The notes under the pieces were generated by a model. That model saw nothing but the letters and a program-made list of their open reading frames with translations. It was not told the origin of the DNA and searched no databases. From the IMG/VR virus record IMGVR_UViG_2778261417_000005, positions 1-15,692 of that record: 15,692 bases of DNA; one strand, written 5' to 3'. This document shows positions 78 through 15,692 of the stretch, piece by piece. The stretch is from a virus (taxonomy: Duplodnaviria > Heunggongvirae > Uroviricota > Caudoviricetes). Each line of letters starts with the position of its first letter. The first letter of the stretch is position 1. The translations under genes were made by a program, and so were the position numbers.

Positions 78-378
78 TTATTTCTTCGCTTCCGGTAGTG
101 CCTATATCGTTGCTATGTTACCGGTATTTGCCATGCTGGCGAACGTCTCCGGCGCACCGTTAATGTTAACCGCGCTGGCACTGTTGTTCTCCAACTCCTA
201 TGGCGGCATGGTTACTCACTATGGCGGCGCGGCAGGTCCGGTCATCTTTGGCGTGGGTTATAACGATATTAAATCCTGGTGGTTGGTCGGTGCGGTACTG
301 ACGATATTAACCTTCCTGGTGCATATCACCCTCGGCGTGTGGTGGTGGAATATGCTGATCGGCTGGAACATGCTGTAA
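78..378 (+). pseudogene. ybhI: 3' fragment of a DASS-family (CitT-like) anion transporter gene, 5' part displaced by IS1
   Basis: Open frame to TAA at 376-378 encodes about 100 aa of hydrophobic helices (…SGSAYIVAMLPVFAMLANVSGAPLMLTALALLF…WWWNMLIGWNML). It has no credible start: the tracked TTG at 64 lies inside the IS1 inverted repeat. Position upstream of ybhJ matches K-12 gene order as recalled. Confidence 0.6.
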
Positions 379-560
379 ATATACTCGTCATACTTCAAGT
401 TGCATGTGCTGCGTTTGCGTTCGCTCACCCCAGTCACTTACTTATGTAAGCTCCTGGGGATTCACTCACTTGTCGCCTTCCTGCAACTCGAATTATTTAG
501 AGTATATCCATTTATTATCTTTCTGCGCACTTCACGGTGCGCAGATATCTGGAGCATTTG

Positions 561-2822
561 ATGATCAAGTTATCTGAAAAAGGCGTGTTTCTCGCCAGTA
601 ATAACGAAATAATTGCCGAAGAACATTTCACCGGCGAAATTAAAAAAGAAGAAGCCAAAAAAGGCACTATTGCCTGGTCTATTCTCTCTTCTCATAATAC
701 GTCCGGAAATATGGATAAACTTAAAATTAAGTTTGATTCATTAGCCTCTCACGATATTACCTTTGTTGGTATTGTACAGACCGCTAAAGCGTCCGGAATG
801 GAACGTTTCCCGCTGCCGTATGTGCTGACCAACTGCCATAACTCACTCTGCGCCGTCGGCGGCACCATTAACGGTGATGACCATGTTTTTGGTTTATCGG
901 CAGCTCAGCGTTATGGCGGTATTTTTGTGCCTCCGCATATTGCGGTCATCCATCAATATATGCGTGAGATGATGGCAGGCGGCGGCAAAATGATCCTCGG
1001 GTCAGACAGCCACACCCGTTACGGTGCATTAGGGACAATGGCAGTCGGTGAGGGCGGCGGTGAGTTGGTAAAACAGCTGCTTAATGACACCTGGGATATC
1101 GACTATCCGGGAGTTGTTGCGGTGCATCTGACCGGAAAACCAGCGCCGTATGTGGGGCCGCAGGATGTGGCGCTGGCTATCATCGGTGCCGTGTTCAAAA
1201 ACGGCTACGTCAAAAACAAAGTGATGGAATTCGTAGGTCCCGGTGTTGCTGCGCTCTCTACCGATTTCCGTAACAGCGTTGACGTTATGACCACTGAAAC
1301 GACCTGTTTAAGTTCTGTCTGGCAAACCGATGAAGAAGTCCATAACTGGCTGGCGCTGCACGGTCGCGGCCAGGATTACTGCCAGCTTAACCCTCAACCG
1401 ATGGCGTACTACGATGGCTGCATCAGCGTTGATTTAAGCGCCATCAAACCAATGATTGCGCTGCCGTTCCACCCGAGCAACGTGTATGAAATCGACACAC
1501 TGAACCAGAACCTGACCGACATTCTGCGTGAGATTGAAATTGAGTCCGAACGCGTGGCGCACGGTAAAGCCAAACTCTCGCTGCTGGATAAAGTGGAAAA
1601 TGGTCGCCTGAAAGTGCAGCAGGGGATTATCGCGGGCTGTTCTGGCGGTAACTACGAAAACGTCATCGCGGCGGCGAATGCACTGCGCGGTCAATCCTGT
1701 GGCAATGACACCTTCTCGCTGGCAGTTTACCCGTCATCACAGCCGGTGTTTATGGATCTCGCCAAAAAAGGTGTGGTAGCAGATTTGATTGGCGCAGGCG
1801 CAATCATCAGAACCGCGTTCTGCGGCCCATGCTTTGGCGCGGGCGATACGCCAATCAACAACGGATTAAGTATTCGCCACACCACGCGCAACTTCCCGAA
1901 CCGCGAAGGCTCTAAGCCAGCTAATGGGCAGATGTCAGCGGTGGCGTTGATGGACGCTCGTTCTATCGCTGCGACTGCGGCAAACGGTGGCTATTTAACC
2001 TCTGCCAGCGAACTTGATTGCTGGGACAACGTGCCGGAGTACGCCTTCGATGTAACGCCGTATAAAAACCGTGTTTATCAGGGCTTTGTGAAAGGGGCAA
2101 CTCAGCAACCGCTGATTTACGGACCGAACATTAAAGACTGGCCGGAATTGGGTGCGCTGACTGACAATATCGTCCTGAAAGTGTGCTCGAAGATCCTCGA
2201 CGAAGTGACCACCACCGACGAACTGATTCCTTCCGGTGAAACCTCTTCTTATCGTTCAAATCCGATTGGTCTGGCGGAGTTTACCCTGTCACGCCGCGAT
2301 CCCGGTTATGTTGGCAGAAGTAAAGCGACTGCTGAGCTGGAAAATCAGCGTCTGGCGGGGAATGTCAGCGAGCTGACAGAGGTGTTTGCGCGCATTAAGC
2401 AGATTGCTGGTCAGGAGCATATTGATCCGCTGCAAACTGAAATTGGCAGCATGGTATATGCGGTGAAACCAGGCGATGGTTCTGCGCGTGAACAGGCGGC
2501 GAGCTGCCAGCGTGTGATTGGCGGTCTGGCGAATATTGCCGAAGAGTACGCGACTAAACGCTACCGTTCTAACGTCATCAACTGGGGGATGTTACCGCTG
2601 CAGATGGCGGAAGTGCCAACCTTTGAAGTGGGGGATTACATTTACATCCCTGGCATTAAAGCGGCGCTGGATAATCCGGGTACGACGTTTAAAGGTTATG
2701 TGATCCATGAAGATGCGCCGGTAACGGAAATTACGCTCTATATGGAAAGTCTGACTGCTGAAGAGCGCGAGATTATCAAGGCGGGTAGTTTGATTAACTT
2801 CAATAAAAACCGTCAGATGTAA
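561..2822 (+). CDS. ybhJ: Aconitase-family protein (putative hydratase), 753 aa from the ATG at 561
   Basis: Long ORF (tracked from GTG 537). ATG at 561 has GGAG at 551-554, 6 nt upstream, giving MIKLSEKG… Translation carries aconitase-like Gly-rich and Cys-containing motifs ([26 protein letters not shown]). Confidence 0.9.
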
Positions 2823-2845
2823 AAAGCGCCATGTGAATGTAGGTC

Positions 2846-3040
<195 letters not shown>

Positions 3041-3055
3041 AATAGTTAATTGCTC

Positions 3056-4339
3056 TTACTTCTTCGCCTCTGCAACCACTTTACTACCCACGCCGCGGTT
3101 ATTGTATTCCCACATGCGGTTGTAGTTAGTGTCATTCAGATTGCGCTGTATTTCGTCGTTATCATCTACGCTGCCGGTATTACCCGCAAACGGACGATTA
3201 GAGATCACCGCATCGGCCCACGGTTTAGCCGTGTTAAAACCTTCGTTGATGGCGCTATCACGGATCACCACCTGACCGTTGGTATTGGCATCAACATCCA
3301 GCGAGCGGCCCAGTTGCGCCACACCATCACCGAAAGCATTGAAACGGCTGTTTACGGCGAGGAAACCGTAGTAAATGTTGGACAGCGTAGCCGGTGCAAA
3401 CACATACGCTTCTTGCTGAGTACGTGAGTTCACCACGCGGAATTCGGTGTTATCGAACACCACTGCGCCGCGACCAGAAACGATATCCACATCCCCTTCA
3501 ATGTAGCTGTTGGTCACCAGCGTACGCGGCTGACGATTCGTTTCCAGACGGTTCTGCACACCGCTGTTGGTGACAAAGAAGGTGTTCTGACGACCGAGAA
3601 TGTTAACGTTGTTAATCTGTACCTGGTCACCATCAGTACGCAGTGCCACCGCCGGATGGTTACCTGCATCTACGCTATCGCCCAGCGTGTTTTCGATGGT
3701 CAGATTTTGCAGTTGCAGGCCATTGTTTTGTGACCAGAAGACCGCAGAGCAGAGAACACCGATACTGTCGCTGCGTTTGCTCTGGCAGCTATCGTACATA
3801 TACCACGCTGGTTTACCTGGCATATATTTGCCGCGCGGGTTGACGTCGTGACGCCAGTCGGCAGGGCTCATGCCACCATCAAGGGAAAGCCCAATCTTCA
3901 CATCAATCGGTTTTTCACCTGTACCGTACAGAGTAATTCCACCCGGAGCGGCAGGGACATATACCGTTCCCTGATACTCACCAGGCATCACGGCAATATA
4001 CTGGCGCTTGTTGGTACGCTTGATAATTGCCGCATCTACCGCCGCCTGAATCGTGGTATGCGTTACACCTTGAGTGCCCGCCGGGCCGACAACAAAGTCA
4101 GGTTGCGCAGGCAGGGTAATCGGGGAAGGATTCCACGCTGCAGCACCTGGTGTCAGGGATGCAAAATAGTGTTGAGCATCGAAATTCTGCGCTTCTTTTG
4201 CCGACAGAATCGGGCGAGAAGAGGTACCAGGCGCGGTTTGATCAGAAGGACGTTGATCGGGCGGGGTTGAGCTACAGGCGGTCAGCGTCACGCCAAAAGC
4301 CAATGCCAGCGCCAGACGGGAAACTGAAAATGTGTTCAC
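3056..4339 (-). CDS. ybhC: Outer-membrane lipoprotein, pectinesterase-like family, 427 aa
   Basis: 427-aa ORF with lipoprotein signal MNTFSVSRLALALAFGVTLTAC (lipobox LTAC), GTG start at 4339. Sits immediately chromosome-side of the att core, as for K-12 ybhC. Confidence 0.9.
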   Translation of the reverse strand: MNTFSVSRLALALAFGVTLTACSSTPPDQRPSDQTAPGTSSRPILSAKEAQNFDAQHYFASLTPGAAAWNPSPITLPAQPDFVVGPAGTQGVTHTTIQAAVDAAIIKRTNKRQYIAVMPGEYQGTVYVPAAPGGITLYGTGEKPIDVKIGLSLDGGMSPADWRHDVNPRGKYMPGKPAWYMYDSCQSKRSDSIGVLCSAVFWSQNNGLQLQNLTIENTLGDSVDAGNHPAVALRTDGDQVQINNVNILGRQNTFFVTNSGVQNRLETNRQPRTLVTNSYIEGDVDIVSGRGAVVFDNTEFRVVNSRTQQEAYVFAPATLSNIYYGFLAVNSRFNAFGDGVAQLGRSLDVDANTNGQVVIRDSAINEGFNTAKPWADAVISNRPFAGNTGSVDDNDEIQRNLNDTNYNRMWEYNNRGVGSKVVAEAKK

Positions 4340-4385
4340 AGGTTGCTCCGGGCTATGAAATAGAAAAATGAATCCGTTGAAGCCT

Positions 4386-4473
4386 GCTTTTTTATACTAA
4401 GTTGGCATTATAAAAAAGCATTGCTTATCAATTTGTTGCAACGAACAGGTCACTATCAGTCAAAATAAAATCA
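4386..4473. other. Prophage attachment site attL: lambda 15-bp core plus P' arm
   Basis: Core GCTTTTTTATACTAA at 4386-4400, preceded by attB-type host arm (…TTGAAGCCTGC) and followed by GTTGGCATTATAAAAAAGCATTGCTTATCAATTTGTTGCAACGAACAGGTCACTATCAGTCAAAATAAAATCATTATTTG, recognised as the lambda P' arm. It abuts the int stop at 4474. Confidence 0.9.
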
Positions 4474-5544
4474 TTATTTGATTTCAATTTTGTCCCACTC
4501 CCTGCCTCTGTCATCACGATACTGTGATGCCATGGTGTCCGACTTATGCCCGAGAAGATGTTGAGCAAATTTATCGCTTATCTGCTTCTCATAGAGTCTT
4601 GCAGACAAACTGCGCAACTCGTGAAAGGTTGGCGGATCCCCTTCGAAGGAGAGACCTGATGCTTTTCGTGCGCGCATAAAATACCTTGATACTGTGCCGG
4701 ATGAAAGCGGTTCACGACGAGTAGATGCAATTATGGTTTCTCCGCCAAGAATCTTTTTGCATTTATCAAGTGTTTCCTTCATTGATATCCCGAGAGCATC
4801 AACATGCAATGTTGTTGGGATGGCAATTTTTACGCCTGTTTTGCTTTGCTCGACATAAAGATATCCATCTACGATATCAGACCACTTCATTTCGCATAAA
4901 TCACCAACTCGCTGCCCGGTAACAACAGCCAGTTCCATTGCAAGTCTAAGCCAACATGGTGATGATTCTGCTGCTTGATAAATTTTCAGGTATTCGTCAG
5001 CCGTAAGTCTTGATCTCCTTACCTCTGATTTTGCAGCGCGAGTGGCTGCGACCGGGTTTGTTGTTATATGGCCTTCAGCTATAGCCTCTCGGAATGCATC
5101 GCTCAGTGTTGATCTGATTAACTTGGCTGATGCCGCCTTGCCCTCGTCTATGTATCCATTGAGCATTGCCGCAATTTCTTTTGTGGTGATGTCTTCAAGT
5201 GGAGCATCAGGCAGACCCCTCCTTATTGCTTTAATTTTGCTCATGTAATTTATGAGTGTCTTCTGCTTGATTCCTCTGCTGGCCAGGATTTTTTCGTAGC
5301 GATCAAGCCATGAATGTAACGTAACGGAATTATCACTGTTGATTCTCGCTGTCAGAGGCTTGTGTTTGTGTCCTGAAAATAACTCAATGTTGGCCTGTAT
5401 AGCTTCAGTGATTGCGATTCGCCTGTCTCGGCCTAATCCAAACTCTTTACCCGTCCTTGGGTCCCTGTAGCAGTAATATCCATTGTTTCTTATATAAAGG
5501 TTAGGGGGTAAATCCCGGCGCTCATGACTTCGCCTTCTTCCCAT
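4474..5544 (-). CDS. int: Lambda-type tyrosine integrase, 356 aa
   Basis: 356-aa ORF starting MGRRRSHERRDLPPNLYIRNNGYYCYRDPRTGKEFGLGRD…, matching lambda Int in sequence and length as recalled, with a conserved C-terminal catalytic region (…HELRSLSARLY…LLGHKSDTMASQYRDD). Adjacent to attL. Confidence 0.95.
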   Translation of the reverse strand: MGRRRSHERRDLPPNLYIRNNGYYCYRDPRTGKEFGLGRDRRIAITEAIQANIELFSGHKHKPLTARINSDNSVTLHSWLDRYEKILASRGIKQKTLINYMSKIKAIRRGLPDAPLEDITTKEIAAMLNGYIDEGKAASAKLIRSTLSDAFREAIAEGHITTNPVAATRAAKSEVRRSRLTADEYLKIYQAAESSPCWLRLAMELAVVTGQRVGDLCEMKWSDIVDGYLYVEQSKTGVKIAIPTTLHVDALGISMKETLDKCKKILGGETIIASTRREPLSSGTVSRYFMRARKASGLSFEGDPPTFHELRSLSARLYEKQISDKFAQHLLGHKSDTMASQYRDDRGREWDKIEIK

Positions 5545-5740
5545 TTCTGATCCTCTTCAAAAGGCTACCTGTTACTGGTCGATTTAAGTCAACCTTTACC
5601 GCTGATTCGTGGAACAGATACTCTCTTCCATCCTTAACCGGAGGAGGGAATATCCTGCACTCGCGTACCCATCGACGAACTGTTTCAAGGCTTCTTGGGC
5701 GTCGCTGGCGTGCGTTCCACTCCTGAAGTGTCAAGTACAT
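5522..5740 (-). CDS. xis: Excisionase, 72 aa
   Basis: 72-aa ORF MYLTLQEWNARQRRPRSLETVRRWVRECRIFPPPVKDGREYLFHESAVKVDLNRP…, matching lambda Xis as recalled. Its 3' end overlaps the int start by 23 nt. Confidence 0.9.
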   Translation of the reverse strand: MYLTLQEWNARQRRPRSLETVRRWVRECRIFPPPVKDGREYLFHESAVKVDLNRPVTGSLLKRIRNGKKAKS

Positions 5741-5765
5741 CGCAAAGTCTCCGCAATTACACGCA

Positions 5766-5786
5766 AGAAAAAACCGCCATCAGGCG
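5766..5786 (-). terminator. Putative intrinsic terminator (minus strand) just upstream of xis
   Basis: GC-only 5-bp stem CCGCC (5773-5777) / GGCGG (5782-5786) with loop ATCA. On the minus strand it is followed by a six-U tract (plus-strand A-run 5766-5772). Short stem, so tentative. Confidence 0.4.
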
Positions 5787-5947
5787 GCTTGGTGTTCTTT
5801 CAGTTCTTCAATTCGAATATTGGTTACGTCTGCATGTGCTATCTGCGCCCACAGCATCCAGTGGTCATAGCAGTCGCTGATGTTCTCGGCTTCGATAACT
5901 CTGTTGAATGGTTCTCCATTCCATTCACCTGTGACTCGGAAGTGCAT
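5779..5947 (-). CDS. Small hypothetical phage protein, 55 aa
   Basis: Hand translation of the minus strand from ATG (plus 5945-5947) to TGA (plus 5779-5781): MHFRVTGEWNGEPFNRVIEAENISDCYDHWMLWAQIAHADVTNIRIEELKEHQAA. Not in the ORF track (under the length cutoff). Its stop lies inside the hairpin above. Confidence 0.45.
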
Positions 5948-6189
5948 TTATCATCTCCATAAAACAAAACCCGCCGTAGCGAGTTCAGATAAAAGAAATC
6001 CTCGTCAGTGCGAGGATGCTGTTCATTGCTGCTATACACTTTTTTGCTCTCAACGTAAGCGGTAGCCCATTCTGTTGGGTTGGTGCAGTTGCTTTTAGGA
6101 AATGCTATTTACCCCTTAAATGTCGGCTGAAAGAGCTAAAATCCATGCAAAAAATTTACGCAATTTTGTGTATTATTGTGCAGTAAGTA

Positions 6190-6792
6190 ATGAGCTATTT
6201 TCTGCGCAAAAAATGGATGGTAAATTTGTCCGGGTCAGGAAAAATTTTATGGGCGCTAAACATGAAAAAAGATTCGTATCCTTATTTGATTTGCATGACA
6301 GTTTCAGGGCTGATCTTTATTTTCCTTTTCTTCTGGTGGCGGGCAGATATCTACAGGGTCACGTTTCTTAATCAGAGTATATCCCACTATTACATTCTGT
6401 TTAGCATGGGAATAGCTTTTCTGTTATCTCTGTTTTGGGTTAAGAAGGGGATAGTAAAACAAAGCGGCTGGAAGAGTCTGTCAGCATACCTTAAGGTTTA
6501 TGCAGGGATGTGCATATTTGCTGGATTTTTTCTGATTATACCCCTTACGACACTAACTTATTTTTTGCCTGGAGAGACATCGTCTTATGTTGCACCGTAT
6601 CGGTATACTTCCGGTAGTTCAAAAAGTTGTTCTGGAGCTGAGGTGGATGACCCCGATCTACATGAGAATATTCGCATTTGCTATCCGTATGGCAATTATG
6701 AGTACGATAATATTATCTATGTTGAAAAGAAAATTAATATATTAGGTGCGGTAGTGACATATGCACAGACCGCGCGTGATGATACTGAATGA
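6190..6792 (+). CDS. Hypothetical integral membrane protein (3 predicted TM helices plus about 75-aa C-terminal domain), 200 aa; AT-rich accessory gene
   Basis: Only plus-strand ORF inside a minus-strand operon. Hydrophobic stretches YLICMTVSGLIFIFLFFWW, YYILFSMGIAFLLSLFWV and VYAGMCIFAGFFLIIPLTTLTYFL. Visibly AT-rich codon usage. Start uncertain (ATG 6190, 6217 or 6262; none has a strong Shine-Dalgarno). Confidence 0.6.
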   Translation: MSYFLRKKWMVNLSGSGKILWALNMKKDSYPYLICMTVSGLIFIFLFFWWRADIYRVTFLNQSISHYYILFSMGIAFLLSLFWVKKGIVKQSGWKSLSAYLKVYAGMCIFAGFFLIIPLTTLTYFLPGETSSYVAPYRYTSGSSKSCSGAEVDDPDLHENIRICYPYGNYEYDNIIYVEKKINILGAVVTYAQTARDDTE

Positions 6793-6826
6793 TATAGTAT
6801 ATAGCGGGCAAGTTTTAGTTAATTTA

Positions 6827-6850
6827 TCGAGGTAATATAATTTACCTCGA
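6827..6850 (+). terminator. Candidate terminator hairpin downstream of the membrane-protein gene
   Basis: Perfect 9-bp stem TCGAGGTAA (6827-6835) / TTACCTCGA (6842-6850), loop TATAAT. The downstream tract ACTCGTTTGTTCT is only moderately U-rich. Confidence 0.35.
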
Positions 6851-7002
6851 CTCGTTTGTTCTGGTATTAATATTTCGCTTTACGACCGATTTTTATCTGA
6901 TGATATCATGCGGTTTTCATATACTGACTTACTGTCTTTTCTCCGTTAGCGATTTTCTCCTGCTCAGCGATGATTTTATCTTTGGCTTCTAGTTAATTTC
7001 GC

Positions 7003-7224
7003 TCACTTCGAACCTCTCTGTTTACTGATAAGCTCCAGATCTTGCTGGCAACTGGCACAAGTCCGACAACCCTGAACGGCCAGTCGTCTTCGTTCATCTA
7101 TCGGATCGCCACACTCACAACAATGAGTGGCAGATATAGCCTGGTGGTTCAGGCGGCGCATTTTTATTGCTGTGTTGCGCTGTAATTCTTCAATTTCTGA
7201 TGCTGAATCAATTATGTCTGCCAT
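7003..7224 (-). CDS. DksA/TraR-family C4 zinc-finger protein (lambda Orf73-like), 73 aa
   Basis: 73 aa with paired Cys motifs HCCECGDPIDERRRLAVQGCRTCASC, the CxxC…CxxC layout and CE-CG-PI-RR signature of TraR/DksA-type RNA-polymerase-binding proteins. Confidence 0.8.
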   Translation of the reverse strand: MADIIDSASEIEELQRNTAIKMRRLNHQAISATHCCECGDPIDERRRLAVQGCRTCASCQQDLELISKQRGSK

Positions 7225-7285
7225 CTTTCATTAATCCCTGAATTGTTGGTTAATACGCTTGAGGGTGAATGCGAATAATAAAAAA

Positions 7286-7300
7286 GGAGCCTGTAGCTCC
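7286..7300 (-). terminator. Candidate intrinsic terminator (minus strand)
   Basis: Stem GGAGC (7286-7290) / GCTCC (7296-7300), loop CTGTA. On the minus strand it is followed by U-rich tract TTTTTTATTATT (plus A-run 7274-7285). Confidence 0.4.
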
Positions 7301-7322
7301 CTGATGATTTTGCTTTTCATGT

Positions 7323-7604
7323 TCACCGTTCCTTAAAGACGCCGTTCAACATGCCGATCGCCAGGCTTAAATGAGTCGGTGTGAATCCCATCAGCGTTAC
7401 CGTTTCGCGGTGCTTCTTTAGTACGCTACGGCAAATGTCATCGACGTTTTTATCCGGAAACTGCTGTCTGGCTTTTTTGATTTCAGAATTAGCCTGACGG
7501 GCAATGCTGCGAAGGGCGTTTTCTTGCTGAGGTGTCATTGAACAAGCCCCATGTCGGCAAGCATAAGCACACAGAATATGAAGCCCGCTGCCAGAAAAAT
7601 GCAT
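7323..7604 (-). CDS. Hypothetical small phage protein with N-terminal Cys/His cluster, 93 aa (start uncertain; internal Met at 7538 would give 71 aa)
   Basis: ORF MHFSGSGLHILCAYACRHGACSMTPQQENALRSIARQANSEIKK… with C-x3-C-x-H-x2-C near the N-terminus. Its length equals lambda ea8.5 (93 aa, from memory) but identity is not verified. No clear Shine-Dalgarno at either start. Confidence 0.5.
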   Translation of the reverse strand: MHFSGSGLHILCAYACRHGACSMTPQQENALRSIARQANSEIKKARQQFPDKNVDDICRSVLKKHRETVTLMGFTPTHLSLAIGMLNGVFKER

Positions 7605-7614
7605 TCAGTGGTTG

Positions 7615-7806
7615 TCATACCTGGTCTCTCTCATCTGCTTCTGCTTTCGCCACCATCATTTCCAGCTTTTGTGAAAGGGATGCGGCTAACGTATGAAATT
7701 CTTCGTCTGTTTCTACTGGTATTGGCACAAACCTGACTCCAATTTGAGCGAGGCTATGTGCCATCTCGATACTCGTTCTTAACTCAACGGGAGATGCTTT
7801 GTGCAT
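7615..7806 (-). CDS. Small delta-region protein, 63 aa (lambda orf63-like by size and position)
   Basis: 63-aa [66 protein letters not shown]. It overlaps the next gene by 28 nt, the arrangement recalled for lambda orf63/orf60a. Confidence 0.55.
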   Translation of the reverse strand: MHKASPVELRTSIEMAHSLAQIGVRFVPIPVETDEEFHTLAASLSQKLEMMVAKAEADERDQV

Positions 7807-7961
7807 ACAGCTCCCCGTTTATTATTTATCTCCTCAGCCAGCCGCTGTGCTTTCAGGGGATTTCTGATAACAGAAAGGCCGGGAAATACCCAGCCTCGCT
7901 TTGTAATGGAGTAGACGAAAGTGATCGCGCCTACCCGGATATTATCGTGAGGATGCGTCAT
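7779..7961 (-). CDS. Small delta-region protein, 60 aa (lambda orf60a-like)
   Basis: ATG at 7959-7961 overlaps the exo stop (7958-7960) in ATGA fashion and gives a 60-aa product [24 protein letters not shown]… The track's 7967 start adds two codons. Confidence 0.5.
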
Positions 7962-8638
7962 CGCCATTGCTCCCCAAATACAAAACCAATTTCAGCCAGT
8001 GCCTCGTCCATTTTTTCGATGAACTCCGGCACCATCTCGTCAAAACTCGCCATGTAATTTTCATCCCGCTCAACCACGACATAATGCAGGCCTTCACGCT
8101 TCATTCGTGGGTCATAGTTGGCAAAGTACCAGGCATCTTTTCGCGTCACCCACATGCTGTACTGCACCTGGGCCATGTAAGCCGACTTTATGGCCTCGAA
8201 ACCACCGAGCCGGAATTTCATGAAATCCCGGGAGGTAAACGGGCATTTCAGTTCAAGGCCGTTGCCGTCACTGCATAAACCATCGGGAGAGCAGGCGGTG
8301 CGCATACTTTCGTCGCGATAGATGATCGGGGATTCAGTAACATTCACGCCGGAAGTAAACTCAAACAGGGCTCTGGCGTCGTTCTCGTACTGTTTTCCCC
8401 AGGCCAGCGCCTTAGCATTAACTTCCGGAGCCACACCGGTGCAAACCTCAGCCAGCAGGGTGTGGAAGTAGGACATTTTCATGTCAGGCCACTTCTTTCC
8501 TGAGCGGGGCTTTGCTATCACGTTGTGAACTTCTGAAGCGGTGATGACGCCGAGCCGTAATTTGTGCCATGCATCATCCCCCTGTTCGACAGCTCTCACG
8601 TCGATCCCGGTACGCTGCAGGATAATGTCCGGTGTCAT
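7958..8638 (-). CDS. exo: Lambda-type 5'-3' exonuclease (Red alpha), 226 aa
   Basis: 226-aa [68 protein letters not shown]…, matching lambda Exo as recalled. 4-nt overlap with bet upstream. Confidence 0.95.
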
Positions 8639-9420
8639 GCTGCCACCTTCTGCTCAGTGGCTTTCTGTTTCAGGAATCCAAGAGCTTTCACTGCTTCGGC
8701 CTGTGTCAGTTCTGACGATGCGCGAATGTCGCGGCGAAATATCTGGGAACAGAGCGGCAATAAGTCGTCATCCCATGTTTTATCCAGGGCGATCAGCAGA
8801 GTGTTAATCTCCTGCATGGTTTCATCGTTAACCGGAGTGATGTCGCGTTCCGGCTGACGTTCTGCAGTGTATGCGGTATTTTCGACAATGCGCTCGGCTT
8901 CATCCTTGTCATAGATACCAGCAAATCCGAAGGCCAGACGGGCACACTGAATCATGGCTTTATGACGTAACATCCGTTTGGGATGCGACTGCCACGGTCC
9001 GGTGATTTCTCTGCCTTCGCGGGTTTTGAATGGTTCGCGGCGGCATTCATCCATCCACTCGGTAACGCAGATCGGATGATTGCGGTCCTTGCGGTAAATC
9101 CGGCATGTGCAGGATTCATTGTCCTGCTCAAAGTCCATACCATCAAACTGCTGGTTTTCATTGATGATGCGGGACCAGCCATCAACGCCCACCACCGGAA
9201 CGATGCCGTTCTGCTTATCAGGGAAGGCGTAAATTTCTTTCGTCCACGGATTAAGGCCGTACTGGTTGGCGACGATCAGCAATGCGATGAACTGCGCATC
9301 GCTGGCATCGCCTTTAAATGCCGTCTGGCGAAGAGTGGTGATCAGTTCCTGTGGGTCGACAGAATCCATGCCGACACGTTCAGCCAGCTTCCCAGCCAGC
9401 GTTGCGAGTGCTGTACTCAT
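8635..9420 (-). CDS. bet: Single-strand annealing protein Beta (Red beta), 261 aa
   Basis: 261-aa [69 protein letters not shown]…, matching lambda Bet as recalled. Confidence 0.95.
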
Positions 9421-9425
9421 CCGTT

Positions 9426-9722
9426 TTATACCTCTGAATCAATATCAACCTGATGGTGAGCAATGGTTTCAACCATGTACCGGATGTGTTCTGCCATGCG
9501 CTCCTGAAACTCAACATCGTCATCAAATGCACGGGTAATGGCTTTTTTGCTGGCCCCGCAGCGTTGTAAATGATCGATGCAGAGCGATTCAAACAAATGC
9601 TGGGGCAGGCCTTTGTCCATGTCGTCTGCCAGTTCTGCCTCTTTCTCTTCACGGGCGATCTGCTGGTAGTGACGCGCCCAGCTCTGAGCCTCAAGACGAT
9701 CCTGAATGTAATAAGCGTTCAT
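9426..9722 (-). CDS. gam: Gam (RecBCD inhibitor), 98-aa short form
   Basis: [98 protein letters not shown], near-identical to lambda Gam with a few substitutions relative to my recollection. An in-frame TAA lies 19 codons upstream of the ATG. Confidence 0.9.
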
Positions 9723-9798
9723 GGCTGAACTCCTGAAAATGGCTGTGAAAATATCGCCCGCGAAATGCCAGGCTGATTAGGAAAACAAGAAAGGGGGG

Positions 9799-10089
9799 TT
9801 AGTGATTCAGGCCGTTACCGCGTCCGTCGAGAAAAACTTCCACGAGCAAATCACGGGTATAAGTGCGCTCGATGCCGCGATGCAGATAAAGCCGTCCGCG
9901 TAAATTAGCTGATGCAGTCCAGGTACCATCTTTGTGTTTGACCAGCATTCCTGGCATGACCGCACCTCGATTAACGGTCTGCGTTCCGTAATGTTGATGA
10001 ACCATAAAAACTCCTGCCCGTAAGCTGGGCTGCTGAACATATAAAGACTTCTGCGCGTATTCAGGCGGTGGATGGCCGCCGGTTGTCAT
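9799..10089 (-). CDS. Hypothetical small protein at the kil/cIII position (up to 96 aa; true start may be an internal Met)
   Basis: ORF with GAGG 10 nt upstream of the ATG at 10089. Its 3' end overlaps the region upstream of gam, as kil does in lambda. No recognisable N-type Arg-rich motif. Confidence 0.45.
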   Translation of the reverse strand: MTTGGHPPPEYAQKSLYVQQPSLRAGVFMVHQHYGTQTVNRGAVMPGMLVKHKDGTWTASANLRGRLYLHRGIERTYTRDLLVEVFLDGRGNGLNH

Positions 10090-10282
10090 AACTAAGCCGC
10101 CTCGTTGAAGCGACTAAGGTATGAAATGTTGAGTTAATTTCAGCTGGTCACACCGACGTTCACGCGTCCGTTTCACCCCTCGCACTCCCCGAAGCCTGCT
10201 GAAATTCAAACTGCGGATCTAAGCGGTCATCGCAACGGTGAATCAGGTGGTTGCCGTATCGTTGTGTTGTTGCGATATGGTG

Positions 10283-10326
10283 ATAATAGCTATTGCTATT
10301 GGTGATATCAATACTTATTGCTATTA
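10283..10326 (-). promoter_or_regulatory. pL-like early leftward promoter with operator-like repeats (OL)
   Basis: On the minus strand: -35 TTGATA (plus 10306-10311), 17-nt spacer, -10 TATTAT (plus 10283-10288). Plus-strand TATTGCTATT occurs at 10291-10300 (in the spacer) and 10316-10325 (upstream of -35). Palindrome AATAGCTATT at 10285-10294. Confidence 0.55.
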
Positions 10327-10447
10327 GTTGATGTGTTTTGATATTAAATGTTTGATAGCAAAAAGAATTAATTTTGTGACTTGCATCGCATAGCGATAAC
10401 TGAAGTGAGGTGTGGTGGTTTTTTGGACGGTTTGTGTGATGAGGGGA

Positions 10448-10480
10448 GGCAAAAGAAAACCCGGCACTGGGGCCGGGTTT
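10448..10480 (-). terminator. Intrinsic terminator ending the repressor-side accessory operon (tIMM-like)
   Basis: Perfect 9-bp stem AAACCCGGC (10457-10465) / GCCGGGTTT (10472-10480), 6-nt loop. On the minus strand it is followed by UCUUUUGCC. Lies 76 bp downstream of the stop at 10556. Confidence 0.6.
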
Positions 10481-10555
10481 AGATGGATAAGAAAGGGTAA
10501 TAGGGAATGAAAAATCGCTTTGCGTAATGCAAGGTGGCGAGCAGTTTCTTAAGCA

Positions 10556-10996
10556 CTAAAGAAAAAAGTACATTGATAGCTTATAAAGACCTGTTCCTGC
10601 AGCGATGATTGCTGGAACACCAAGCAATACCGCAAGCTTTGCGTCTGAAATCTTTCTATCGACAGCATCGATGGAGGGTTTTTTGGCTAGTGAATCTTTT
10701 ATTGAATCGAGTCGCTCCAGAACAGCGATCATGTTTCTGTCGATAGATTTGACATCTGTCTTAAGCTCATCAACGTCACGTCGGATATAGGACACATCAG
10801 ACTCAAGCTTTGCAACTTTCGATTCAAGCACATTATTACTCCCAGAGCCACCGCTACCACTTGATTGTAGCATAGGTACATTACCGCCAGACATACCAGC
10901 TGATTGAGAAAATGCTGCAGTGTGCAAAGATGATGATCTTGCCGCTTGTTCAAGCTTTTCAGTTAGGTTTGGAGCTTCGTAATAACCGTGTTTCAT
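10556..10996 (-). CDS. Hypothetical tail-anchored membrane protein with coiled-coil region, 146 aa
   Basis: N-terminal Ser/Gly-rich segment (SSGSGGSGSNN), heptad-like region (VAKLESDVSYIRRDVDELKTDVKSIDRNMIAVLERLDSIKDSLAKK), and a single C-terminal hydrophobic helix (LAVLLGVPAIIAAGTGLYKLSMYFFL). Start is 8 nt after the upstream gene's stop (translational coupling). AT-rich. Confidence 0.7.
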   Translation of the reverse strand: MKHGYYEAPNLTEKLEQAARSSSLHTAAFSQSAGMSGGNVPMLQSSGSGGSGSNNVLESKVAKLESDVSYIRRDVDELKTDVKSIDRNMIAVLERLDSIKDSLAKKPSIDAVDRKISDAKLAVLLGVPAIIAAGTGLYKLSMYFFL

Positions 10997-11004
10997 TGTT
11001 AATA

Positions 11005-11274
11005 TTATGACTTATTGGTTTTAGCTCTATCATGCTGATCGCGAATAAAGTCAGCGAGTTTAAGCATTAAATCTTCCGTCATGCGAATTGTTGCAATGTT
11101 GTACTTTACGTTTTCAGTGTCATTACTACCATCAGCGCCCCATTCTGTAACATGCTGAAAGAAAGATATGGAGCCTAAGCGATCGTCATCTTCCCCAAAA
11201 GATGAATATCCAAATGCATCAGCATATGCATCTACACAGTTATTTGATTTTTTTATAAGTTTTTTATCACTCAT
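11005..11274 (-). CDS. Hypothetical small acidic soluble protein, 89 aa
   Basis: ORF MSDKKLIKKSNNCVDAYADAFGYSSFGEDDDRLGSISFFQHVTEWGADGSNDTENVKYNIATIRMTEDLMLKLADFIRDQHDRAKTNKS. Shine-Dalgarno GGAAAGG about 5 nt upstream of the ATG. Starts 80 bp downstream of the repressor stop, same strand. Confidence 0.7.
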   Translation of the reverse strand: MSDKKLIKKSNNCVDAYADAFGYSSFGEDDDRLGSISFFQHVTEWGADGSNDTENVKYNIATIRMTEDLMLKLADFIRDQHDRAKTNKS

Positions 11275-11353
11275 TTTTGCCTTTCCCGTAATGTTATTTT
11301 TATAAAGAATTCTTTCAGCGCATTACCCAAAAGCCTCATCAGCACGCAGCTGA

Positions 11354-12046
11354 TTATCCGTGTTTCCTATACGTCTGCGGCATACTGCCAATAACCTTCC
11401 CGAAAATGAACACCCGGTTCATCTCGTCTTTCTCGATCGGGTCCCACGGTGAGTAGCTCTTGTTATCAGAGATAACCAGTAGCTTATCTTTCATCATTTG
11501 CAGGCGCTTTACATGGGCTGTGTCGTCGTACAGAAACGCATAGATACCATCACCGTCGAAAGATTTAACCGTGATATCAACGAACAGCAGATCACCTGGT
11601 TCGATCGTTCCTGACATGCTGTCACCGCGCACGTTAATGATGCGGATATTTTCCGCCTTCCTGCCATCGAACATGTGACGAGCATCGTCAAACGAGTACT
11701 CAACCGAGCGTAGAACTTCCACAAACTCACGGTTGATGACACCCGGTCCGGCACTGACTTCTATATCAAGAACGTCAATCTTGAAGTATTTTGAATGGCT
11801 GACAGCAGGCTTCCCTGATTGTTGACCGTCATTTCTCATCGGGCCTATGCCTGATGAGAGCCATTCTGTTCGAACACCCAATGCATTAGCTATTTCAACA
11901 ATTTTTGTTGAGCCGCGCGCGTTGCCGCTTGTCAGTCTCCAGATTGTGGGTTGAGCTACGCCAGACGCCTTTGCAAGAGCGCCTTGAGACATTCCAGATT
12001 GTTCCATCGCTAGGTTTAAGCGATCAGCAAGAGTTTCTTTTTTCAT
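11354..12046 (-). CDS. cI-type prophage repressor (N-terminal HTH plus C-terminal LexA-like S24 peptidase domain), 230 aa from the Met at 12046
   Basis: HTH segment MSQGALAKASGVAQPTIWRL. Candidate autocleavage Ala-Gly (…EVSAGPGV…). Peptidase motif VRGDSMSGTIEPGDLLFVD with downstream Lys (VKRL). The tracked start at 12082 lies upstream of the predicted pRM -10, so 12046 is preferred. Not lambda cI by sequence. Confidence 0.85.
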   Translation of the reverse strand: MKKETLADRLNLAMEQSGMSQGALAKASGVAQPTIWRLTSGNARGSTKIVEIANALGVRTEWLSSGIGPMRNDGQQSGKPAVSHSKYFKIDVLDIEVSAGPGVINREFVEVLRSVEYSFDDARHMFDGRKAENIRIINVRGDSMSGTIEPGDLLFVDITVKSFDGDGIYAFLYDDTAHVKRLQMMKDKLLVISDNKSYSPWDPIEKDEMNRVFIFGKVIGSMPQTYRKHG

Positions 12047-12156
12047 AAGTTTTAATTTATACGCTTGCGTATTGATGGTCAAAACACGTTTTGCTATTGC
12101 TTGGGTTAATACGCATTGCTATTATTCATTCATTGCAATACCAATAGGAATTGATA
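12047..12156. promoter_or_regulatory. Divergent immunity control region (OR, pRM-like leftward, pR-like rightward)
   Basis: pR-like: -35 TTGCTT (12097-12102), 17-nt spacer, -10 TATTAT (12120-12125). pRM-like on the minus strand: -35 TTGACC (plus 12077-12082), -10 TATAAA (plus 12056-12061), implying an almost leaderless repressor mRNA. Operator-like TTGCTATTGC (12091-12100), ATTGCTATT (12115-12123), palindrome ATTGCAAT (12132-12139). Confidence 0.55.
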
Positions 12157-12384
12157 ATGACAAATCAAACCATTCAACTCGCAATCAGTATTACAGGTAG
12201 TCAAAAACGACTGGCAGATCTATGCGGTGTAGCCCAACCCACAGTTTGGCGTTGGCTACACGGTGGCGGAATTGATGCCCGCTATGTAATGAAAATTGTC
12301 TCAGCCACTGGTGGAAAGATTAAACCAGCAGATATTCGTCCCGACCTCGCACCATTGTTTAACGCGAGTAATTCTGCCGCCTAA
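12157..12384 (+). CDS. Cro/YdaS-like HTH regulator, 75 aa
   Basis: ATG at 12157 with AGGAA 6 nt upstream. HTH segment GSQKRLADLCGVAQPTVWRWL. First rightward gene opposite the repressor. Confidence 0.8.
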   Translation: MTNQTIQLAISITGSQKRLADLCGVAQPTVWRWLHGGGIDARYVMKIVSATGGKIKPADIRPDLAPLFNASNSAA

Positions 12385-12408
12385 ACTGCGGCGTTAACTG
12401 ATAAGGCA

Positions 12409-12954
12409 ATGACTATGCAACCACTTACATACCAACAGACTAGCGGATTTAGCCCGACTGCGGTGATAAATCGTTCTCAAACAAAACAGGCGCCAGGCCA
12501 CGAAAAAATCCGTGATGCCGTTCGCGCCTGGTCGGCTGCAGATAATCAGGATGTTGTTGCCGCACTCATTGTGAATGAGTATCGGGAGCAGGGCGGCGGC
12601 ACCATCGATTTCCCTGATGATGTCAGCCGTGCACGCCAGAAGCTGTTCCGCTTCCTCGATAACAAATTCGATTCTGAAAAATACCGAAATAACGTGCGTG
12701 AACTGACCCCGGCAATTCTGGCGGTACTACCGCTGGAATATCGCGGCCACCTGGTTGAGCAGGATAGCTACATGGCTCGGCTGGCTGAAATGGAAAAGGA
12801 ACTCAGTGAGGCAAAACAGGCTGTCATTCTCAACGCACCACGCCACCAGAAACTGAAGGAGATGAGTGAAGGCATTGTGTCGATGTTTCGTGTGGACCCG
12901 GATTTGGCTGGTCCACTGATGGCGATGGTCACCACCATGCTGGGGGCAATATGA
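12409..12954 (+). CDS. Hypothetical regulatory protein at the cII position (possibly a YdaT-like CII analogue), 181 aa
   Basis: ORF begins 24 bp after the cro-like stop and ends overlapping the next ORF. Family assignment is from recollection of Rac/CP-933-type regions where a cro-like gene is followed by ydaT; not verified. Confidence 0.5.
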   Translation: MTMQPLTYQQTSGFSPTAVINRSQTKQAPGHEKIRDAVRAWSAADNQDVVAALIVNEYREQGGGTIDFPDDVSRARQKLFRFLDNKFDSEKYRNNVRELTPAILAVLPLEYRGHLVEQDSYMARLAEMEKELSEAKQAVILNAPRHQKLKEMSEGIVSMFRVDPDLAGPLMAMVTTMLGAI

Positions 12955-13040
12955 CAGGTTCGGAAATGGCGAAAGCCGGTCTGCGCGAACAGAACCGACT
13001 TTCAGGTGCAAATCGTAACACACTCATTGCGGGAGGAATT

Positions 13041-13970
13041 ATGGCAAACACTGCTGAGATATTCAATTTTCCAGTGCCGGATGTGGCACAAAAGGAGCGG
13101 CGCGTGGCAGATCTCGACGATGGTTATACGCGCATTGCAAATGAGTTGCTGGAAGCTGTGATGCTGGCCGGATTAACACAGCACCAGCTTCTGGTCTTCC
13201 TGGCTGTCATGCGCAAAACATATGGCTTTAATAAAAGACTGGATTGGGTGAGCAACGAGCAACTTTCCGAATTGACCGGGATATTGCCGAACAAGTGTTC
13301 TGCTGCAAAAAGCGTTCTGGTAAAGCGTGGGATTCTTATTCAGAGCGGGCGGAATATCGGCATTAATAATGTGGTCAGTGAATGGTCAACATTACCCGAA
13401 TCAGGTAAGAAAAATAAAGTTTACCTGAAAGAGGTAAATTTACCTGAATCAGGTAAGAAAAGTTTACCCAAATCAGGTAAAGGCGTTTACCCGAATCAGG
13501 TAAACACAAAAGACAAACTAACAAAAGACAATATAAAACCTTTTTCGTCCGAGAATTCTGACGAATCCTCTGACCAGCCAGAAAACGATCTTCCTGTGAT
13601 GAAACCGGATGCTGCAATTCAGAGCGGCAGCAAGTGGGGGACAGCAGAAGACCTGACCGCCGCAGAGTGGATGTTTGACATGGTGAAGACCATCGCGCCA
13701 TCAGCCAGAAAACCGAATTTTGCAGGGTGGGCTAACGATATCCGCCTGATGCGTGAACGTGATGGACGTAACCACCGCGACATGTGCGTGCTGTTCCGCT
13801 GGGCATGCCAGGACAACTTCTGGTCCGGTAACGTGCTGAGTCCGGCTAAACTCCGCGACAAGTGGACCCAGCTCGAAATCAACCGTAACAAGCAACAGGC
13901 TGGCGTGACAGCCAGAAAACCAAAACTCGACCTGACAAACACTGACTGGATTTACGGGGTGGATTTATGA
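13041..13970 (+). CDS. O: Replication initiator, O-like (iteron-binding), 309 aa from the ATG at 13041
   Basis: MANTAEIFNFPVPDVAQKERRVADLDDGYTRIANELLEAVMLAGLTQHQLLVFLAVMRKTYGFNK… resembles the lambda O N-terminus but diverges. GGGAGG at 13031-13036. Iterons lie inside the gene. The tracked start at 12951 adds 30 codons of doubtful coding. Confidence 0.85.
   Translation: MANTAEIFNFPVPDVAQKERRVADLDDGYTRIANELLEAVMLAGLTQHQLLVFLAVMRKTYGFNKRLDWVSNEQLSELTGILPNKCSAAKSVLVKRGILIQSGRNIGINNVVSEWSTLPESGKKNKVYLKEVNLPESGKKSLPKSGKGVYPNQVNTKDKLTKDNIKPFSSENSDESSDQPENDLPVMKPDAAIQSGSKWGTAEDLTAAEWMFDMVKTIAPSARKPNFAGWANDIRLMRERDGRNHRDMCVLFRWACQDNFWSGNVLSPAKLRDKWTQLEINRNKQQAGVTARKPKLDLTNTDWIYGVDL
13392..13503. repeat. 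Replication origin iterons (five 17-bp repeats) inside the O-like gene, followed by an AT-rich tract
   Basis: TTACCCGAATCAGGTAA (13392), TTACCTGAAAGAGGTAA (13421), TTACCTGAATCAGGTAA (13440), TTACCCAAATCAGGTAA (13464), TTACCCGAATCAGGTAA (13487). Each is an internal inverted repeat TTACC…GGTAA. AT-rich AAACACAAAAGACAAACTAACAAAAGACAATATAAAACC follows. Confidence 0.8.
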
Positions 13971-14668
13971 AAAACATCGCCGCACAGATGGTTAACTTTG
14001 ACCGTGAGCAGATGCGTCGGATCGCCAACAACATGCCGGAACAGTACGACGAAAAGCCGCAGGTACAACAGGTAGCGCAGATCATCAACGGTGTGTTCAG
14101 CCAGTTACTGGCAACTTTCCCGGCGAGCCTGGCTAACCGTGACCAGAATGAACTGAACGAAATCCGCCGCCAGTGGGTTCTGGCTTTCCGGGAAAACGGG
14201 ATCACCACAATGGAACAGGTTAACGCAGGAATGCGCGTAGCCCGTCGGCAGAATCGACCATTCCTGCCATCACCCGGGCAGTTTGTCGCCTGGTGCCGGG
14301 AAGAAGCATCCGTTAACGCCGGGCTGCCAAACGTCAGCGAGCTGGTTGATATGGTTTACGAGTATTGCCGGAAGCGTGGCCTGTATCCGGATGCAGAGTC
14401 TTATCCGTGGAAATCGAACGCGCATTACTGGCTGGTTACCAACCTGTACCAGAACATGCGGGCCAATGCGCTTACTGATGCGGAATTACGGCGCAAGGCT
14501 GCCGATGAACTGTCCTGTATGACCGCGCGAATTAACCGTGGTGAGGCGATACCTGAACCAGTAAAACAGCTTCCTGTCATGGGCGGTAGACCTCTAAATC
14601 GTGCACAGGCTCTGGCGAAGATCGCAGAAATCAAAGCTAAGTTTGGGCTGAAAGGAGCAAGTGTATGA
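13967..14668 (+). CDS. P: Replication protein P (DnaB helicase loader), 233 aa
   Basis: MKNIAAQMVNFDREQMRRIANNMPEQYDEKPQVQQVAQIINGVFSQLLATFPASLANRDQNE…, near-identical to lambda P as recalled and the same length. ATGA overlap with the O stop. Confidence 0.95.
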   Translation: MKNIAAQMVNFDREQMRRIANNMPEQYDEKPQVQQVAQIINGVFSQLLATFPASLANRDQNELNEIRRQWVLAFRENGITTMEQVNAGMRVARRQNRPFLPSPGQFVAWCREEASVNAGLPNVSELVDMVYEYCRKRGLYPDAESYPWKSNAHYWLVTNLYQNMRANALTDAELRRKAADELSCMTARINRGEAIPEPVKQLPVMGGRPLNRAQALAKIAEIKAKFGLKGASV

Positions 14669-14838
14669 CGGGCAAAGAGGCAATTATTTATTACCTGGGG
14701 ACGCATAAGAGTTTCTGTGCGCAGGACGTTGCTGCGGCAACAGGTGTGACAGTAACCTGCATAAATCAGGCAGCAGCTAAAATGGCGCGTGCAGGAATCC
14801 TGGTCATTGATGGTAAGGTCTGGCGAACGTTTGTTTAA
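14665..14838 (+). CDS. Ren-like ORF, apparently C-terminally truncated (57 aa)
   Basis: ATG overlaps the P stop. AAAGGAG lies 7 nt upstream. Product MTGKEAIIYYLGTHKSFCAQDVAAATGVTVTCINQAAAKMARAGILVIDGKVWRTFV resembles the N-terminus of lambda Ren (about 96 aa, from memory). The frame ends where AT-rich foreign sequence begins. Confidence 0.6.
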   Translation: MTGKEAIIYYLGTHKSFCAQDVAAATGVTVTCINQAAAKMARAGILVIDGKVWRTFV

Positions 14839-14984
14839 CGGTTAGCTACTCAGGATGATAGGGCGCGGCAAGTGAGTATGAAGCGGATTTTCAGGAATGC
14901 CATCAGAGTTTGGAAATAAAGTGGGTTTTCTAGTGGCAAGAGACTTGATAATATTTAGTTCTTTGAAGCCAAGGAGATAGGGTT

Positions 14985-15479
14985 ATGAGAAAATTTATTT
15001 TAGCCTTTGTCATAAGTGCCTCGTTTACAGCAAATGCTGGTGTAGAGAAGTTAGGGCCGTGGATAACAAAGTCTGAGATAAATAAAATGACTGACCAGAC
15101 TGACTTTGTGGCTCTTAATTTATCACCAGATTCATATAACAAAGCAGGTACTGATCGTGCAACTTCACTGGTGTTGCGTTGTAGTGATAACAAAACAGAT
15201 GCCTATTTATCATTCAATGATTATATGGGTTCGGACAACCCAAGAATTACAGTGCGGTTAGATGGCGGAAAGCCGGTCAAGAGTGTTTGGGGTGGTGGGG
15301 AAGGCGGTGATTCTGCATTTGCTCCACAACCAATACAATTTATAAAGACCTTGGCTAAGCATAAAAAAGCCATTTTTGGGTTTGAACCTTATGGATCAAC
15401 TATGCAAGTAGTTGAGTTTGACTTGTCTGAGATTGATAAGGTTGTGGAAAAAATTTCACAGTCTTGCAATTGGAAATGA
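14985..15479 (+). CDS. Hypothetical secreted (periplasmic) protein with cleavable signal peptide, 164 aa
   Basis: Strong Shine-Dalgarno AAGGAG (14971-14976) 8 nt before the ATG. Signal peptide MRKFILAFVISASFTANA with AxA site. Two Cys in the mature part (C66, C162). AT-rich. Followed by a canonical terminator. Confidence 0.75.
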   Translation: MRKFILAFVISASFTANAGVEKLGPWITKSEINKMTDQTDFVALNLSPDSYNKAGTDRATSLVLRCSDNKTDAYLSFNDYMGSDNPRITVRLDGGKPVKSVWGGGEGGDSAFAPQPIQFIKTLAKHKKAIFGFEPYGSTMQVVEFDLSEIDKVVEKISQSCNWK

Positions 15480-15496
15480 CAAAAAAATTTCATATG

Positions 15497-15520
15497 AACC
15501 CAGTTGGCGCTGGGTTTTTT
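15497..15520 (+). terminator. Rho-independent terminator
   Basis: 7-bp stem AACCCAG (15497-15503) / CTGGGTT (15510-15516), loop TTGGCG, running into a T-tract ending at 15520. An A-tract upstream gives possible bidirectional activity. Confidence 0.7.
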
Positions 15521-15562
15521 ATTTCAGTAGCCAATAATGCATTCAAAATCTCTTACTTGAGA

Positions 15563-15692
15563 GGTAATGACTCCAACTTACTGATAGTGTTTTATGTTCA
15601 GATAATGCCCGATGACTTTGTCATGCAGCTCCACCGATTTTGAGAACGACAGCGACTTCCGTCCCAGCCGTGCCAGGTGCTGCCTCAGATTC
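15563..15692 (-). mobile_element. IS1 insertion sequence, IRR-side 130 bp (element continues beyond the window end)
   Basis: GGTAATGACTCCAACTTACTGATAGTGTTTTATGTTCAGATAATGCCCGATGACTTTGTCATGCAGCTCCACCGATTTTGAGAACGACAGCGACTTCC… matches the IS1 right end as recalled, with one mismatch in the inverted repeat. Confidence 0.9.
15578..15692 (-). CDS. insB: IS1 transposase InsB, 3' end (partial; 5' part beyond the window)
   Basis: Minus-strand reading ends …[16 protein letters not shown] with TAA at plus 15578-15580, the recalled InsB C-terminus. Confidence 0.75.

Follow-up and report, generated by a model that had tools for sequence, protein, structure and literature searches.

IS1 is an insertion sequence of about 768 bp in which a programmed -1 frameshift yields InsAB', and its insertions are polar. 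Paired copies are known in both arrangements, direct in Tn9 and inverted in Tn1681. Among the lambdoid prophages of Escherichia coli K-12, DLP12, Rac and Qin are cryptic and have been eroded by insertion sequences (ISs), and the classical r-mutants of phage lambda reportedly carry polar IS1 or IS2 insertions in the cII-O region. IS1 itself, the IS-bounded erosion of lambdoid prophages and contig breaks caused by ISs are all already known. The locus described here, a viral record of 15,692 nucleotides (IMGVR_UViG_2778261417_000005; the whole stretch is referred to as the window), brings the three together: the early half of a lambdoid prophage and the adjoining chromosomal genes lie between two partial IS1 copies (Table 1), and at issue is whether the prophage ends at the right-hand copy or is interrupted by it.

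Table 1. Features of the window and the basis of each assignment.
Feature	Position	Strand	Basis or remark
Left IS1, IRL-proximal 77 bp	1-77	minus	Identity to annotated copies, IR pattern, InsA translation
ybhI 3' fragment, last ~100 codons (anion permease)	78-378	plus	"Partial anion permease" annotation in relatives
ybhJ	561-2822	plus	Chromosomal gene
ybhC	3056-4339	minus	Chromosomal gene
Lambda att core (attL)	4386-4400	plus	Exact match to GCTTTTTTATACTAA, 0 expected by chance
Lambdoid prophage, early half	4474-14668		ORFs; Pfam labels of the identical L013/L016 genes; Pfam scan
Secreted VasI/TagO-like moron gene, 164 aa, signal peptide	14985-15479	plus	RefSeq name, Pfam
Intrinsic terminator of the TagO-like gene	15496-15523 (stem 15496-15517, then T tract)	plus	Sequence
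Target bases TACTTGAGA adjoining the right IS1	15554-15562		Empty sites in L013, L016 and L059
Right IS1, IRR-proximal 130 bp	15563-15692	minus	Identity to annotated copies, IR pattern, InsB translation

A search with the IS1 inverted-repeat consensus revealed exactly two sites in the window, at positions 55-77 on the minus strand and 15563-15585 on the plus strand, where none would be expected by chance. Both window ends thus carry the imperfect repeat of ~23 bp (GGTRATG...CCAACTTAYTGAT), accompanied by the terminus of insA next to IRL and that of insB next to IRR, the only parts of the two genes that are visible within the window. At the left, the terminal bases are the reverse complement of the IRL end of annotated IS1 copies with 100% identity; the 23-bp IRL is followed by the insA start codon, GTG, at 22-20, and the minus strand translates to (V)ASISIS, the annotated InsA N-terminus. 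At the right, the terminal 130 bases open with the 23-bp IRR, GGTAATGACTCCAACTTACTGAT; annotated copies in complete E. coli genomes likewise show 100% identity over the 130 bp nearest IRR, and 15578-15691, read on the minus strand, gives the final 37 residues of InsB with the stop codon, just as in an annotated copy. The left copy extends leftwards beyond the window. The right copy leaves the window after 130 bp, so that its IRL end, expected to read ...AGTAAGTTGGCASCATYACC on the plus strand, lies outside. Since each transposase gene lies on the minus strand, the copies form direct repeats, separated by 15,485 bp (78-15562). The original prediction, which was made from the sequence alone, had placed the start of an IS1 right end at 15563 and described two direct copies with minus-strand transposases around some 15.5 kb, and both statements are borne out by the repeat matches, identities and translations. 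The differing 9-mers that it quoted for the inner flanks (78-86 and 15554-15562) were correct on re-reading, and its view that the inner flanks of two separate elements need not match is supported.

One diverged isoform, ~93% identical to IS1A (52 differences over 768 bp), agrees exactly with the left 77 bp. The right 130 bp depart from it at five positions and from IS1A at one. This might be taken to mean that the pair represents two isoforms; the argument was dropped, since full-length mosaic copies exist (L069 and L070) in which each end is 100% identical to the corresponding window end. The E. coli IS1 copies inspected (L037-L040, L069 and L070) form a mosaic series between IS1A and the ~93%-identical isoform, with the type switching at varied internal points, a pattern that suggests gene conversion or recombination among isoforms. 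About half of the IS1 copies inspected, a biased sample, are without a target-site duplication, which tells somewhat against a simple insertion at the right end.

The left IS1 cuts ybhI, and the uninterrupted site in L059 reads ...cattatcgtgtg/TTATTTCTTCGC (the slash marks the insertion point). From this empty site a target-site duplication of TTATTTCTT is predicted, and for a simple insertion the ybhI-side flank ahead of the IRR end of IS1 would be ...ATTATCGTG(T/C)GTTATTTCTT. The original prediction passed over both the truncated gene at the start of the block and the role of ybhI as a recurrent IS1 target. IS1 copies recur in the 3' part of this gene (loci L002, L036, L071, L072, L073 and L078), and in other E. 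coli the junctions are shifted relative to that in the window by 2 or 12 bp upstream or by 9 bp downstream, in both orientations. More copies lie ~50-130 bp away as estimated from match length, one of which is sequence-confirmed at 86 bp (L035), and the IS1 copies in the region include simple insertions as well as deletion endpoints reaching ybhH or ybhD. We considered whether the left IS1 might be the same insertion as those in ybhI of complete genomes; this was ruled out by junctions offset by +2, +12 or -9 bp or by opposite orientation. The exact left junction was absent among the best-ranked E. coli records.

Inwards of the ybhI fragment, the chromosomal stretch 537-4339 holds ybhJ and ybhC, whose intervening spacer contains REP/BIME repeats. 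A repeat search found two copies of a REP/BIME-like unit of 92-93 bp in this spacer (2846-3040), 89-97% identical to each other, and Tandem Repeats Finder reported nothing there. The spacer differs in length by ~93 bp between strains, and the copy number of the unit therefore varies.

The 15-bp att core together with int and xis on the ybhC side places a lambdoid prophage at lambda attB, the ybhB side being seen only in relatives. Its early genes comprise int, xis, exo, bet, gam, kilR, two genes for proteins of 146 and 89 aa of unknown function, an S24 repressor, YdaS-like and YdaT-like genes, O and P; lambda integrase and Exc domains were recognised by Pfam in the genes identical to int and xis. 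The 146-aa and 89-aa genes (10556-11274, minus strand) lie between kilR and the repressor, the position taken by rexAB in the relative L031. Neither is assigned to a Pfam family with significance, and their PHROGs are of unknown function, the 146-aa protein occurring in ~2,800 collection blocks; the pair may be regarded as candidate prophage moron or defence genes. A 200-aa ORF on the plus strand (6190-6792), without a Pfam match and assigned to PHROG 1416 of unknown function, runs against the surrounding leftward early genes. Downstream of P, ren (~14665-14933) is a pseudogene with a frameshift and an internal stop, as it is in relatives, and the region has no plus-strand ORF of at least 60 aa. 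The next gene encodes the TagO-like protein, named "T6SS-associated TagO" in RefSeq, with a score against PF11319 (VasI) of 26.7 bits that is barely over the cut-off of 26.5. A TagO-like moron between ren and the nin region is found in very many lambdoid prophages (~10,000 collection blocks).

The terminator of the TagO-like gene is undamaged by the right IS1, its T tract lying ~40-45 bp ahead of the element, in agreement with the spacing of 43 bp originally given. The 32 bases immediately ahead of IS1 (15531-15562) are ordinary phage spacer. In the empty site, TACTTGAGA is followed by AACGGCCTATTTGAG, and in the group formed by L059 and L062 the site reads ...ctcttacttgaga/AACGGCCTATTTGAG, again with the slash at the insertion point; had the insertion been simple, TACTTGAGA would be its 9-bp target-site duplication. 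The target is a non-coding spacer with a local GC content of 32-38%, and an AT-rich non-coding target agrees with the preferences of IS1 in a mutation-accumulation study (PMC5009759).

Comparison with other genomes revealed the same phage in several states. Two draft assemblies (L013 and L016) are 99.984% identical to positions 2951-15562, with two mismatches in 12,612 bp, and both run uninterrupted past 15562, the right IS1 site being empty. In L013 the sequence continues with a HEPN gene, which in the intact phage lies about 0.5 kb downstream of the 3' end of the TagO-like gene, and then with the nin region (NinE, YbcO, RusA, YlcG), Q, a porin moron, holin, lysozyme, Rz, Bor, Nu1 and the large terminase subunit. 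The same prophage is present in L059 and L062, with two mismatches in 4401-15562, an intact ybhI and both IS1 sites empty; L059 has 13 similar places, both it and L062 span the right site, and L068 ends at window position 12147. The empty-site arrangement that the original prediction had proposed to look for in related strains is accordingly present, at both IS1 sites in L059 and L062 and at the right site in L013 and L016. The chromosomal background of the L059/L062 group is a different one, with ~39 differences clustered in ybhI-ybhJ, and a near-identical prophage at lambda attB in different chromosomal backgrounds implies a recently spreading phage.

The right junction itself was not found elsewhere. 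Positions 14700-15562 are matched at 98-99.8% by 81 complete E. coli genomes, and in the best 30 of the 81 the match ends at 15562. A megablast search of 5,426 complete E. coli genomes returned the junction in none of them, no place covering more than 87% of the query; an exact 40-mer over the junction had no match in species-representative genomes, IMG/VR or JGI metagenomes, and an exact-protein look-up had no junction-spanning ORF on record. Further exact-protein look-ups, with the TagO-like protein, O, YbhJ, Int, the 146-aa protein, Gam and the truncated YbhI, led solely to longer contigs belonging to other strains. The right IS1 is very recent, because a near-identical phage is uninterrupted elsewhere and the junction is absent from the genomes searched. 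Judged from these alignments, both IS1 insertions are recent and strain- or lineage-specific, in an otherwise intact circulating phage.

IS1 has left its mark on other copies of this phage or of close relatives. In L016 the late genes are lost from the porin gene on, and an IS1 joins the porin gene to a point ~0.8 kb before attR; this IS1 is at another position than the right IS1 of the window and in the opposite orientation. In L034 an IS1 abuts int, and L008 has the order Q-IS1-corA-IS1-ybhB. The three loci represent differing IS1-mediated decay states across strains.

The explanation we lean towards is a simple IS1 insertion with the prophage continuing beyond it. IS1 transposed recently into the AT-rich non-coding spacer after the TagO-like terminator. 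This spacer precedes the HEPN, nin and Q genes of a lambdoid prophage residing at lambda attB, with ybhC to one side and ybhB to the other. The insertion would have duplicated 8-9 bp, (T)ACTTGAGA, and the remaining prophage would follow IS1 outside the window, whose end at this point is probably a short-read assembly break at a multicopy IS1. Multicopy ISs are known to complicate genome assembly (PMC4558774). The O and Gam variants of the window occur on contigs of 10-20 kb in 26-28 collection blocks, none of them on a contig of more than 1 Mb, and their placing on small contigs suggests that the bracketing partly reflects where an assembler stopped. The window is probably a whole draft contig of 15.7 kb bounded by collapsed IS1 repeats. 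We also attempted to read the assembler k-mer from the lengths of the two ends, an approach that was abandoned as 77 bp and 130 bp fit no single k value.

The main alternative is that the right IS1 marks the endpoint of a deletion or rearrangement by which the nin region, Q, the lysis and structural genes and perhaps attR were lost, leaving an int/xis-Red-immunity-O/P remnant in a direct IS1 bracket. The original prediction had favoured this view, stating that the second IS1 "ends the prophage" and that the block holds a "prophage remnant". Its underlying observation is borne out: there is no Q, lysis or structural ORF within the window, where a search for a second copy of the att core, which would mark attR, also found none. 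The absence of late genes and of attR is what a deletion would leave. However, the window stops 130 bp into IS1, its content is equally compatible with a simple insertion, and the same phage is complete and collinear through 15562 elsewhere, including in the closest relatives, so that the conclusion drawn from this observation is not supported as it was stated. Losses bounded by IS1 are common at this attB within the phage family concerned (L016, L034, L008, L032), and recombination deletions between IS1 copies make up ~16% of IS1 events even without selection (PMC5009759). The same mutation-accumulation data, with 233 new IS1A insertions and a bias towards local hopping against 43 IS1A recombination deletions, put simple insertions at ~5 to 1 over deletions (PMC5009759). 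Moreover, the junction is in no other genome searched while the flanking phage DNA is almost identical to that of complete prophages, and an event this young has had little time for a deletion as a second step. Given a very recent IS1 in an intact circulating phage, a simple insertion followed by the late genes is at least as likely as truncation, and we regard loss of the late region as possible and as the less probable account.

Whether the insertion was simple or accompanied by a deletion, expression of the late genes is probably impaired, because IS1 is polar and is placed between the pR-O-P operon and Q.

The pair of IS1 copies could also have a significance of its own. The original prediction pointed out that the geometry allows IS1-mediated deletion or amplification of the whole block; this stands as a general statement, insofar as direct repeats can recombine and such deletions are documented (PMC5009759). 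A stronger form, in which the direct pair makes up a translocatable or excisable unit of 16-17 kb with ori, O, P, Red, immunity and int/xis, seems to us highly improbable. If true, a unit released by IS1-IS1 recombination or composite transposition would be an inducible replicon resembling lambda-dv, and ybhJ and ybhC could be amplified in situ after SOS induction. Equally improbable is the related idea that there is a single IS1, the 15.5-kb segment and one IS1 together forming a circle or the unit of a tandem amplification produced by IS1-IS1 recombination. Such a structure would give the same contig ends, IRR at one and IRL at the other, a point missed in the original prediction; full-length IS1 copies with both ends 100% identical to the window ends do exist (L069 and L070), and the segment possesses a lambda-type O/P replication module. 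Against it, the segment is collinear with the native order ybhI-ybhJ-ybhC-attL-prophage of IS-free genomes, and the intact repressor gene would hold pR-dependent replication off. Least probable of all is an assembly artefact, a chimeric contig end joined to an IS1 fragment with no IS1 at the locus itself. The resemblance of the window ends to contig ends inside repeats might suggest it, as might the uniqueness of the junction among all collections searched. Against it, the break coincides precisely with base 1 of the 23-bp IRR and is equally precise at the other end, the AT-rich non-coding site is typical of IS1, and chimeras seldom respect IS termini.

Compared with the described systems, both elements correspond to the IS1 of E. 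coli, which comprises IS1A/IS1B-type and diverged or mosaic isoforms: they share the 23-bp IRs, the InsA start and the InsB C-terminus, and their ends are identical to those of 768-bp copies, whereas the window shows no more than 77 bp of one copy and 130 bp of the other. As in a Tn9-like composite, two direct IS1 copies surround a passenger segment, which could in principle transpose, be deleted or be amplified as a whole. Unlike in a Tn9-type unit that has moved, the passenger is in its native place and order, and no copy of it was seen elsewhere.

With the cryptic lambdoid prophages of K-12 the locus shares a standard att site and an IS at the edge of the retained early region, although loss of the late region is here only a possibility. 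If that region were truly gone, a remnant with immunity, Red and replication genes would be left, much like the cryptic prophages. L016 provides the comparison with the very same phage, in which the loss of late genes is bounded by IS1. More generally, IS1 repeats set the limits of draft contigs, and where an IS on the edge of a contig seemingly ends a prophage, the other junction is needed before truncation is claimed.

As in the lambda r-mutants, IS1 lies ahead of Q in the rightward early transcription unit; unlike in lambda, the immunity region is Rac-like, with YdaS and YdaT, and an N gene is not recognisable. Set beside these systems, the window offers a clean example of an IS1 that signals, and perhaps initiates, decay in a circulating lambdoid prophage that is otherwise intact, as part of the ordinary wear of E. 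coli genomes.
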